64,000 nucleotides of DNA from a virus. Its lineage: Duplodnaviria; Caudoviricetes. Location: IMG/VR virus record IMGVR_UViG_3300043473_000169, positions 624-64,623 of that record, one strand, 5' to 3'. Below, one piece after another: positions 14,696 through 17,639 of this stretch. Under the pieces are notes generated by a model. It saw only the letters and a program-made list of their open reading frames with translations. It had not been told where the DNA came from and searched no databases. Both the position numbers and the translations under genes were made by a program. Positions within the stretch are counted from its first letter, which is position 1, and each line of letters starts with the position of its first letter.

Positions 14696-15486
14696 CTAAC
14701 AAATTTTGTTAGGACCTAACAAACTTAATGCCTAACAAATTTTAATAGGGCCTAACTATTCGCCCCTAACAAATGTTGTTAGTCCCCCATCCCACGTCGC
14801 GCCTAACAAGGTTTGTTAGTGTCTAACTGTTTCTGTTTCTGTTTTGTCCCCTTCCTGTTTCTCTTCCGGTTTGTTAGGCCTAACAACGTTGTTGGATGCG
14901 AGTGCGAGGACACGAGCCACCAGCGCTCGTCTATGCTCCACTTCCACCGGCCCACCGTCGCGCCCTGTTAGCTCCACGTGTTGCGGTATCGTCCACTTGG
15001 CGCGGCTCTGCAGCCAGAAGCGCGAAGCGTTCACGTCGCCACGCAGAGCCTGCTTCAACAGCGCAGCGCCCACCAACGCTGTAACAGCAGCGGTGCCGTG
15101 AATCAGCTCTTCCGAATAGTTAGACCGCACCTCGTGTTCCATGCAGCCTAACACAAACGCGATCTGCTCGATGGTTAGGCCACATGCGACAAGCCTAACA
15201 ACCTGTTCCCGTTTCTGTTTCGTTGGAACGTGAAGCTCTTCCACGATGCGAACCGTCTTTCCACTCACGTTTGTTAGCCCCTAGCAAACCTTGTTAGTTA
15301 CACGGCATGGGCCGCTCGTCCCACGCCACGTGTGGATGAGAACACGTCGGGGCACGCGCCGTCAATCCCCATTAGTGACTAACAAACCACACACGCCCCA
15401 CGACGAGAGGGCACAGGGGGCACGGGGGGCACACGTGAACTGAAAAGCACTAACAAAATGTGTTAGCCACTAACAAGGGTTGTTAG
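14696..15486. repeat. Cluster of CTAACAA-N3-TTGTTAG palindromes flanking terS
   Basis: Copies at 14696, 14732 (degenerate), 14766, 14803, 15281 (1 mismatch), 15450 (1 mismatch) and 15470, plus many half-sites. Confidence 0.85.
14816..15268 (-). CDS. terS: Terminase small subunit
   Basis: 150 aa. N-terminal HTH 'GLTIEQIAFVLG', 'GDVNASRFWLQSRAKW' and 'VELTGRDGGPVEVE' are typical of TerS; upstream of terL. Confidence 0.75.
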   Translation of the reverse strand: MSGKTVRIVEELHVPTKQKREQVVRLVACGLTIEQIAFVLGCMEHEVRSNYSEELIHGTAAVTALVGAALLKQALRGDVNASRFWLQSRAKWTIPQHVELTGRDGGPVEVEHRRALVARVLALASNNVVRPNKPEEKQEGDKTETETVRH

Positions 15487-15960
15487 GCTTGCGACCCACG
15501 ACGAGAGGCAGAGAAAGCGCGACCCGGTGCAGCTTGGCCGCGTCGCGTGCCCCCTCGGGGGGGGGGTCGGCTCGCGTGTTCGGTTGAGTCAGTCCCTCCC
15601 TTCTCTCCCCTCGACCGCGTCAGTCACCCTCCCCCTCTCGGGACGGGGGGCACACGGACCCCCTCCCCCGCAGAATGGCACGCGTCTTGCACAGCCTCTC
15701 CCGTGTATGGAGTCTTGCGCACTGGCACGCTTCTTGCCGAGTACCCGGGGGGTGGCCGATGAAAGCGCTTTCAGTGGTGGCCGGCAAACCGTGTGCCCCC
15801 TGTGCCCTCTCGGTACAAGCGGTACACCGTTTTCACAGCCGTGTAAGGCCCGTAAAACATGCAAGCGCCGTGCCAGCTAACCCACGCCCCAATCGAGGCC
15901 CTCCTTTGTAACCCATGCGCGAGCCGGATTTTCGCCTTCTCGTGTCCCCCCTGTGCCCTC
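15407..15960. repeat. GTGCCCCCTGTGCCCTC repeat, three copies
   Basis: Inverted copy at 15407-15423, direct copy at 15793-15809, near-copy at ~15942-15960. Confidence 0.7.
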
Positions 15961-16646
15961 AGTCGTGCCCTCCCTCGTAGGGGCCACCCATGGGCCCCGT
16001 CGAGCGTAAGCGAGGGGGCACACGAATCGAGGCCCTCCTCGCCCTGTCAAGTACGCAAGCCCCGTGCCACGCCCACTGGGAGTATACGCAAACAACGTGC
16101 CAATGGGCCTGTTGCTGTCAGTGCACCAGAATAGTGCGTTTTTCCCGTGACACGGGTGCCACGTAAGCATATGCCCGAATACGTTAGTGGCGACCCCATC
16201 TTGCGCCGCTCCCAGAGCCTCCCGTTCGGTAACGCAAGCAGCGTGCCACCTCGAGCAACCCGACCGTGGTCGTTTGTTGCTTTGCACCATTCCTTGGCAC
16301 GCCCTTTGCCCGTTCTGTTGGCACGTTGTTTGCCACCTTGCAAAGCCCGTGCCACTTCACTGGCACGTCTTTTGCCGATGCTGCGTAGCACCACACCTCT
16401 TGGCATGTAGCGTGCCAGCCTCTTTGCACCATCGTGGTGCAGCTTTGCACCAGCGTAGTGCGTGTCTCCCGTGTCACGGGCTGGCTTCGAGCATATGCCC
16501 GAATATGTCGGTAGCGACCCCCTGCAGCGCCTCACCGTGAGCCTCCCCGTGTCTCCCGTAGCATGGCACGATCTTTGCCCGTGCTGACCCCACTTACACG
16601 CAAACGCCGTGCCACGCAGACACCTCGCCGATGGCACGCTCTTTGC
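15676..16646. promoter_or_regulatory. Array of 13 sigma54 (RpoN) -24/-12 consensus sites
   Basis: TGGCACG-N4-TTGC on + at 15676, 15723, 16295, 16319, 16361, 16564, 16632. GCAA-N4-CGTGCCA (minus-strand sites) at 15861, 16055, 16088, 16234, 16340, 16600. Confidence 0.85.
16141..16521. repeat. Imperfect ~57 bp direct repeat, two copies
   Basis: 16141-16197 and 16465-16521: CCCGTG-N-CACGGG palindrome followed by AGCATATGCCCGAATA...GCGACCCC. Confidence 0.75.
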
Positions 16647-16847
16647 GTACAACGAAGAACATCTTGACACCGCACTGCACCATGTGTTTTACGCGTGCGC
16701 GCGGTCCTCTCTCTGTCGCGTCGCGGGTCGCCGCACCCGTTCGCCCCTCGACGCTGCGCCCGCCCGAAGCCCTCCGGTGCGCTCGCGTGACCCCCCGCGA
16801 CCCCCGCCCTCGCGCCGATCGGGGCCTCGCCCTGCGTGTGCAACATC

Positions 16848-16876
16848 TTGTGTAGCGCTGCGCCCTGTGTTCTAAT
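16848..16876 (+). promoter_or_regulatory. Possible sigma70 early promoter
   Basis: TTGTGT-17 nt-TCTAAT with extended -10 TG, ~60 nt before the first early ORF. Confidence 0.4.
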
Positions 16877-16938
16877 GGGCTTCGGGTGGAGGGAGAGGGT
16901 CGCACACCGTGACCCCCCGCCACCCCCGGAGAGACGAC

Positions 16939-17268
16939 ATGACGAACACGACCACGAAGACCAAGACCCCCCGCGTGCGCAAGCCCAAGAACGCCCCGAT
17001 CGGCCTCAAGCGTGTCGGCGATAAGGACCACAAGGTTGACCTGTCGCACTACGCCCGCGTCAAGTCGGCGTCGGGCAACGCCAGCCTCGACAACGGCGAT
17101 GCCGTCGCGAAGCAGCTGCGCGAGTTGACCATCGACGACGTCTACAGCCGCGCCAGCAAGGTGCTCAAGGAGCCCGTCACCGCCCTCAAGGCGCGTTACA
17201 AGCACCTCAACGTCGGCATGCAGCGCATGAACCTCGGCAACCGGATCCGGGGCGCTCAGGCGGAGTAA
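16939..17268 (+). CDS. Basic putative DNA-binding protein, 'HLN' paralogue 1
   Basis: First early gene, GGAG RBS; C-terminal RYKHLNVGMQRMNLGNRIR. Confidence 0.8.
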   Translation: MTNTTTKTKTPRVRKPKNAPIGLKRVGDKDHKVDLSHYARVKSASGNASLDNGDAVAKQLRELTIDDVYSRASKVLKEPVTALKARYKHLNVGMQRMNLGNRIRGAQAE

Positions 17269-17281
17269 GGCCCCTCCCCCG

Positions 17282-17301
17282 CCCTCGGCGCAAGCCGGGG
17301 G
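17282..17301 (+). terminator. GCAA-tetraloop hairpin after the first early gene
   Basis: CCCTCGGC-GCAA-GCCGGGGG; no clear U-tract. Confidence 0.35.
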
Positions 17302-17366
17302 TCGGGGGTGGTTTCCCGTGTGCCCTCCTGCGAGGGTCCACCAGCAACCAACACAGGAGCAACACC

Positions 17367-17639
17367 GTGACCAATCGACCGCGTTTCCGCAGCGCCCGCG
17401 ACCCCGCGTGGCCTGTTCACTCAACCGAGATGCTTGCGCTTCTCGGCGTCGTTGGGGGGCGCATCCCCCCGGAGGGCCTGCCCGTGCAGATCGTGCAAGG
17501 CATCCCCGTGTGGGCGGAGGCCCTCGAACCGGCCAAGCCCGGACAGCGCAAGCGCTCCACGCATCGCGTGTTGTGCCGATGCCCGAACTGCGGCAAGACG
17601 CTCTCGGCGGGGAGGCTCAACCAGCACACCTGCGGTTGA
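17367..17639 (+). CDS. Zinc-finger protein
   Basis: C-terminal CPNCGKTLSAGRLNQHTC; AGGAG RBS and GTG start. Confidence 0.7.
   Translation: MTNRPRFRSARDPAWPVHSTEMLALLGVVGGRIPPEGLPVQIVQGIPVWAEALEPAKPGQRKRSTHRVLCRCPNCGKTLSAGRLNQHTCG

Follow-up and report, generated by a model that had tools for sequence, protein, structure and literature searches.

In the genome of a tailed phage, 13 exact copies of the sigma-54 -24/-12 consensus TGGCACG-N4-TTGC are packed into 971 bp of non-coding DNA between the two arms of the gene map, and we consider, with a probability of roughly one half, that this array is a set of sites for the host sigma-54 holoenzyme and serves the entire phage genome as an enhancer-dependent promoter region. 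The DNA analysed, hereafter the window, is a stretch of 64,000 nucleotides (positions 624 to 64,623 of IMG/VR record IMGVR_UViG_3300043473_000169); the full record, which was scanned as the whole genome, is 64,623 bp long and carries the gene content of a tailed phage, including TerL, portal, capsid, primase, helicases and DNA polymerase. As judged from gene orientation and skew, a packaging and structural arm of ~36 kb runs leftward from terS, the small terminase gene, an early and replication arm of 27 kb runs rightward from ~16.9 kb, and the arms converge at ~44.3 kb. Since the gap that holds the array is the only divergent junction, every site, in either orientation, points into one of the two arms. 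Accordingly oriented, the seven forward sites would fire into the early and replication arm and the six reverse sites into the packaging and structural arm. Open complex formation would be driven by an AAA+ activator, which would have to be that of the host because the phage encodes none; in this sub-lineage it would most likely be NtrC, acting on three NtrC-type boxes inside the array, so that phage expression would be coupled to the nitrogen status of the host. The many near-perfect copies could help a single incoming genome to capture scarce sigma-54 holoenzyme, and some titration of host sigma-54 would be expected as a side effect.

A pattern search of the window recovered the same 13 sites that a preliminary description of this DNA had listed (Table 1). 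Window shuffles gave a chance expectation of 0.06 sites, and none of 100 shuffles reached 13. Each site has GG at -24, GC at -12, the fixed spacing between them and the TGGCAC-N5-TTGC context of sigma-54 promoter elements. The clustering, which the preliminary description had named as a point to check, was clear: no other exact site was found in the whole 64,623-bp genome, and no one-mismatch site was found in the window outside the gap. The entire E. coli K-12 chromosome (4.6 Mb) has four exact TGGCACG-N4-TTGC sites. Some details of the earlier account needed correction. The pattern has 11 fixed bases rather than 10, and the reverse site at 15784, previously given as a one-mismatch copy, differs from the 11-base pattern at two positions and from TGGCAC-N5-TTGC at one, while the true one-mismatch copy, a reverse site at 16403, had been overlooked. 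The two boxes and their spacing are invariant as claimed, but the N4 spacers are not all different, as sites 16088 and 16319 are an identical 15-mer. The mixed orientations and 21-24 bp spacings of the sites at 16295, 16319, 16340 and 16361 were described correctly, and this tight block includes one convergent pair (16319/16340) and one back-to-back pair. A conserved TTGCGTA flanks sites 16055 and 16088, and CTTGACA comes after it at 16055. The location between terS and the first early gene is non-coding, as previously stated, in that comparison with relatives revealed no conserved open reading frame in the gap and only short multi-frame matches reflecting the DNA repeats.

Table 1. Features of the window discussed in the text (positions in the window; a dot, no single strand assigned).
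Feature	Position	Strand	Basis or remark
terS (small terminase), first gene of the leftward arm, adjoins the gap	14816..15268	-	PHROG phrog_309; weak HTH_23
Non-coding gap, sole divergent junction of the genome	15269..16939 (1,671 bp)	.	Gene orientation and skew
TTGTTAG/CTAACAA palindrome repeat family beside terS, separate from the sigma-54 motif	15269..15487	.	Repeat analysis
Array of 13 exact TGGCACG-N4-TTGC sites	15676..16646 (971 bp)	7 +, 6 -	Pattern search; + sites 15676, 15723, 16295, 16319, 16361, 16564, 16632; - sites 15861, 16055, 16088, 16234, 16340, 16600
Two rightward sites facing the early arm, far left of the gap	15676-15690, 15723-15737	+	Transcripts would cross the whole array
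Four leftward sites facing terS and the late arm (15861, 16055, 16088, 16234)	15861..16248	-	Pattern search
Composite module, copy 1	16085..16250	-	Site A (16234), ~95 nt, NtrC-type box, 19 nt, site B (16088)
NtrC-type box, two mismatches, core kept, 19 nt upstream of leftward site 16088	16122..16138	.	
Tight block of four sites 21-24 bp apart (16295 +, 16319 +, 16340 -, 16361 +)	16295..16375	.	
Composite module, copy 2	16400..16580	-	324-bp-offset duplicate; site A lost, box doubled, site B with one mismatch
One-mismatch site TGGCACGCTACATGC, T12>A, GG and GC kept	16403..16417	-	Pattern search
NtrC-type box, perfect match, TGCACCA-N3-TGGTGCA = TGCACCATCGTGGTGCA	16425-16441	.	Consensus TGCACCAnnnTGGTGCA, PMC8743547
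NtrC-type box, two mismatches, core GCAnnA-N3-TnnTGC kept, 21 bp from the 16425 box	16446-16462	.	
Last three sites (16564 +, 16600 -, 16632 +), 16632 nearest the early genes	16564..16646	.	
Block common to L139 and L142, with TTGACA-N17-TTTTAC	16662..16722	+	Alignment to relatives
First early gene	16909..17268 (ATG at 16940)	+	No family match; GC content at third codon positions 0.93; basic N-terminus
PurZ (2-aminoadenine pathway), GSEAKG P-loop	42061..43209	+	phrog_1211

The sites are conserved throughout the lineage of this phage. A single-protein TerL scan of IMG/VR gave no relative, and a TerL alignment was required. In all of the TerL-relative contigs fetched, sigma-54-type sites lay in the homologous early/late gap and almost none lay elsewhere. 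Specifically, the gap has nine exact and four one-mismatch sites in L137 and five and three in L139 (TerL identity 80% for both), one and two in L141 (70%), four and two in L142 and one and four in L144 (65% for both), one and four in L145 (62%), four and one in L146 (59%), and one and one in L148 (56%). The nearest named relatives are the Caulobacter phages RLK, KcrB, RW and GB2A (TerL identity 50%), and no array was found in RLK (OQ135106.1). The DNA of the first early gene, which is the best-conserved early gene, kept in all lineage relatives and present also in L065, is ~78% identical in relatives, and the gap is alignable only in short blocks. As the relatives keep sites while the gap barely aligns, the number, place and orientation of the sites turn over. 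Selection thus acts on the sites and not on the surrounding DNA, which agrees with the earlier suggestion of selection on a bipartite site.

The motif is also not restricted to this lineage. When IMG/VR was scanned for two motif copies at most 30 bp apart, for which a rough estimate predicts ~0.2 loci, at least 120 viral loci with tandem copies were obtained on unrelated contigs with GC contents of 36-67%, many of them with 4-11 sites. In the one-mismatch copies inside these arrays, among the matches listed, the GG or GC was altered in 11 of 165 (p = 4e-19), and the changes were dominated by C6>T (71) and G7>A (33), followed by positions 1 and 12; one-mismatch sites in the lineage of this phage had the GG or GC altered in one of 24 (p = 3e-4). 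Sigma-54 sites detected in E. coli by chromatin immunoprecipitation sequencing vary at the same positions as the degenerate array copies (Bonocora et al. 2015, PMC4591121). No protein of this phage was common to the array loci, the most widespread being TerL, with 11 of 120 among the matches listed, and an all-versus-all comparison of proteins near arrays showed recurrence of only terminases and their neighbours. Because the arrays occur in unrelated phages, spare the GG and GC, and share no phage protein, the reader of the motif is most likely a conserved host factor with sigma-54 specificity, presumably host sigma-54 itself, and the assignment of the motif as a sigma-54 site rather than a private phage repeat, made in the preliminary description, is supported. 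In addition, an actinophage clade of 16 rows on a tree of PurZ, a protein of the 2-aminoadenine pathway, has no array, and to our knowledge Actinobacteria lack rpoN.

We searched the phage for proteins that could use such sites. No sigma-54 DNA-binding domain was found in the phage genome, and neither a phage sigma factor nor an enhancer-binding protein was detected, the only Sigma70_r2 match being a sub-threshold one of 12 bits in a 1242-aa ejection protein. A search for T7-type RNA polymerase (PF00940) gave no match here or in control genomes, and an AAA+ sigma-54 activator (PF00158) was found neither in this genome nor in 50 other array-bearing records. The earlier statement that the window has no activator therefore holds for the phage proteins, but it overlooked host-type NtrC boxes that lie inside the array. 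The NtrC consensus is a 17-bp palindrome, TGCACCAnnnTGGTGCA, with the core GCAnnA-N3-TnnTGC (PMC8743547), and this combination of palindrome and core is present in one exact and two core-keeping copies (Table 1), at distances of about 54 to 225 bp from predicted starts. Three of the four NtrC core matches of the window are within the 1.67-kb gap, and all those of L137 (two) and L139 (one) likewise fall inside the gaps of these two phages, with a constant 19 nt separating them from a sigma-54 site. These boxes make host NtrC a concrete candidate for the missing activator. Taken as they stand in the DNA, the sites and boxes lead us to infer that sigma-54 holoenzyme would bind the array, that transcription would start from its sites and that it would depend on NtrC.

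Boxes and sites are joined in a composite module, in which site A is followed by a ~95-nt stretch with conserved GGGAGGC..GAGGCGC..GGGGGTCGC, an NtrC-type box, 19 nt, and site B with the flank TTGCGTA(CTTGACA). The window and L137 each have two copies of the module, and L139 has one. The two copies of the window belong to a 324-bp-offset duplication (16122-16223 and 16446-16547, 79-86% identity) that includes an NtrC-type box and the conserved G-rich stretch. Duplication of this module appears to enlarge the gap, and the 19-nt spacing between box and site B in three phages may reflect such duplication rather than function. A structured RNA at the conserved module was considered and rejected, as the covariation term was unfavourable.

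The orientation of sites in other phages is consistent with promoters. In L142, L146 and L148, which are more distant relatives, the sites mostly face outward toward the two arms, and in a second, unrelated group of PurZ phages, they are located at the divergent junction and face genes, with predicted leaders of ~35 nt in G046 and ~59 nt in G004. Furthermore, in 35 of the 120 IMG/VR loci, among the matches listed, the array precedes TerL by 0.9-2.5 kb and is oriented away from this gene, toward small early genes; in these loci, 128 sites are directed away from TerL vs. 52 toward it (~22 vs. 3 loci). A sigma-54-like promoter with a mapped start (P015) has been described for Pseudomonas phage YuA (Ceyssens et al. 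2008, as cited in bioRxiv 10.1101/2023.10.13.562163).

Several features of the arrays weigh against an enhancer-dependent promoter cluster. The orientations are interleaved in the window, L137 and L139, and the two sites farthest to the left in the gap, 15676 and 15723, are directed rightward, so that transcripts would collide and leaders would be 0.3-1.3 kb long. Where sites are 21-24 bp apart or convergent, as at 16319/16340, simultaneous occupancy of all of them or independent firing would not be possible. The arrays of other phages show no enrichment of NtrC boxes nearby (4 in 101 kb vs. 21 in 951 kb elsewhere), and one box of the window is only ~54 bp upstream of the predicted start of site B, whereas classical enhancers are at -100 to -150. 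Note that the arrays of L064, L070 (G029), L072, L083, L118 and L132 consist of strictly alternating convergent pairs, in which TGGCACG-N4-TTGC, a few bases and the reverse complement are repeated 3-5 times with a period of ~45 bp, an arrangement that is hard to explain as promoters.

The same features bring in the reading favoured by the preliminary description, a decoy or roadblock, in which closed complexes mostly never fire and the array acts as a sink or landing pad that titrates host sigma-54 or insulates the early and late units; as a sink, ~13 perfect sites per replicating genome copy would silence host sigma-54 regulons. Interleaved and convergent sites at 21-24 bp spacing make little sense for independent promoters, the alternating convergent arrays of L064, L070 and L072 fit as well, and all 13 sites have the full core consensus, amounting to 13 per genome copy vs. 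four in E. coli K-12. Also in its favour, an activator was found neither in this genome nor in the 50 other array-bearing records, and in E. coli the majority of bound sigma-54 sites show no transcriptional activity (PMC4591121). However, a pure sink needs no enhancer, and NtrC-type enhancer boxes are present in the array and, in similar form, in the gaps of two relatives. Other phages show an orientation bias toward genes with short leaders, and L148 and L141, with one or two sites, would be poor sinks, yet their sites are kept in the same place. As for a roadblock, intragenic sigma-54 binding was not found to act as one in E. coli (PMC4591121). The interleaving of the sites and a spacing too close for joint occupancy keep the decoy or roadblock of the preliminary description in consideration, but the present data do not favour it; we regard this explanation as rather unlikely and as weaker than the promoter cluster. 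Less likely still is that a phage DNA-binding protein reads the motif, for example as cosB- or pac-type sites of terS, origin iterons or operators, and that the likeness to sigma-54 sites is coincidental. The array is 0.4-1.4 kb upstream of terS, the 35 loci with arrays 0.9-2.5 kb upstream of TerL have a Terminase_6-type TerL, and in nine loci two sites precede a GpA-type TerL by ~650 bp; moreover, repeats that occur in both orientations typify terminase or initiator sites. Against such a protein, the same 11-base core and the sigma-54 pattern of tolerated changes persist across GC contents of 36-67%, and the motif does not co-vary with the terminase, being identical beside the two unrelated TerL families and present in loci with neither, with no small protein common to all array loci. 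In addition, the TTGTTAG/CTAACAA palindromes that hug terS are separate from the motif and are plausibly a better candidate than it for terS (pac) or operator sites. The GpA-type loci form a lineage of their own (L040, L047, L056, L058, L076, L079, L100, L128 and L136; GC content 62-63%), with a large terminase of the lambda GpA type and two tandem sites 24 bp apart that point to TerL, roughly at the position of cosB in lambda.

A role at the genome end, with the array marking a terminus or terminal-repeat boundary and bound holoenzyme aiding DNA entry, end protection or packaging, is in our view very improbable. It draws on RLK, in which the boundary of a 2,940-bp terminal repeat lies inside the homologous 353-bp early/late gap, and on the many arrays found at contig ends; RLK itself, however, has no array. 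In two independent metagenomes, Logan contigs stop within the array of the window (16392-16423, 16578-16593 and 16700-16716), and because assemblies break at the array owing to its repetitive nature, contig ends are no evidence of physical ends. The 127-bp terminal direct repeat of the record resembles the k-mer overlap left by an assembler in a circular assembly and not a physical repeat, and contig depths (13.3 vs. 11.2) show no collapsed long repeat.

PurZ with its GSEAKG P-loop marks this phage as a predicted Z-DNA (2-aminoadenine) genome, and we compared the distribution of PurZ with that of the arrays. PurZ is encoded by three of the 50 array-bearing records, and only 193 PurZ stretches were obtained from the 2.9 million contigs of IMG/VR. 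The PurZ records used were the IMG/VR records behind L154-L233 (G004, G029, G046, G051, G057, G061, G064, G071 and others). Among 50 uncultured PurZ contigs, 18 had at least one exact site, with 57 sites vs. four for the reversed control pattern, and 13 had at least two, mostly clustered, vs. none of 29 PurZ-negative relatives. These negatives come from a control set of 30 IMG/VR records of the phage's own TerL clade, one PurZ-positive and 29 PurZ-negative, in which the array occurred only in the PurZ-positive record and the 29 others had one site among them (Fisher p = 0.0015). RLK has neither PurZ nor an array, and the array-bearing relatives L142 and L144-L148 appear to be PurZ-positive. 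The 14 rows with arrays require a minimum of 4-6 changes on the PurZ tree, where all eight members of one clade have arrays. On the other hand, none of 16 records of cultured PurZ phages has an array, so the link to Z-DNA is not general; 12 of these 16 grow on hosts that we take to have rpoN. The association has few independent origins, and it may be confounded by the host taxon. The -10 recognition by sigma-70 is sensitive to the replacement of A by Z, Z:T pairs are harder to melt and the sigma-54 holoenzyme is opened by an ATP-driven activator. Some Z-DNA phages could thus have moved their host-dependent transcription onto sigma-54 promoters, with the dense clusters at the one divergent junction as the adaptation that makes injected Z-DNA transcribable, a proposal that we consider unlikely.

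The remainder of the gap was also characterized. A scan of 14700-17300 detected no canonical sigma-70 promoter; the block shared with L139 and L142 may be a sigma-70-type early promoter, its second hexamer being without the canonical A at the second position. Rfam gave no match on 14700-17400 at E <= 1, and a similarity search with the gap DNA against 50,697 phage records gave none either. Four public soil or sediment DNA runs contain the region as contigs of identical sequence, which thus give neither microdiversity nor termini, and no RNA run is among the public runs listed for the region. The left half of the gap has G-rich repeats (GGGGGCAC.. / GTGCCCCCTGTGCCCTC, at 15404-15435, 15640-15657, 15790-15812 and 15941-15960), which form inverted and direct repeats of 17-21 nt with complementarity of up to 100%, and one copy is kept in L139 and L146.

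Sigma-54 promoters count as bacterial elements under tight control, and textbook accounts of phage transcription deal with sigma-70, phage sigma factors and phage polymerases. If the proposed reading is true, a phage has hung its genome on a single activator-dependent cluster with NtrC boxes, and infection would be gated by host physiology, for example by nitrogen status; the same layout in many uncultured phages suggests a widespread and little-studied strategy. Should the sink be true instead, phages would have a novel means of shutting down host sigma-54 programmes that requires no protein of their own, and the link to Z-DNA, if it survives phylogenetic controls, would offer a handle on how host polymerase starts on adenine-free DNA. 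No published description of sigma-54 site arrays in phages was found in the literature, which gave only single sigma-54-like promoters in YuA, in line with the remark in the preliminary description that no such phage array was known. New here are the lineage-wide conservation with turnover of sites, the NtrC boxes, the absence of phage activators, the orientation statistics relative to TerL and the association with PurZ.

Among known systems, the T7 promoters A1, A2 and A3 are similar in that the early region begins with a stack of several strong host-polymerase promoters, and differ in being of the sigma-70 type, in a single orientation and activator-free. The R sites of lambda cosB, likewise short and repeated in both orientations, immediately precede the terminase genes; they are specific to their own terminase, whereas the motif described here is identical across unrelated terminases and equals the sigma-54 consensus. 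A bacterial counterpart, NtrC-activated sigma-54 promoters such as E. coli glnAp2, shares with the array the exact spacing of the -24 GG and -12 GC, the full core consensus and the NtrC palindromes, two of them 21 bp apart, and no activity is expected from either without an AAA+ activator. Unlike glnAp2, the array has 13 sites in 971 bp in both orientations, some of them 21-24 bp apart, it is in a phage genome, and a box is ~54 bp from one predicted start instead of 100-150 bp. Phage YuA provides the precedent of a sigma-54-type promoter with a mapped start in a phage; compared by description only, it has single promoters, with no dense bidirectional array and no NtrC boxes reported. Finally, the silent sigma-54 sites of E. 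coli (PMC4591121) show that holoenzyme can occupy consensus-like sites without firing, with the motif score tracking occupancy, and the sink reading builds on this; those sites are scattered, mostly intragenic and imperfect, whereas the sites in this phage are perfect, clustered and intergenic.

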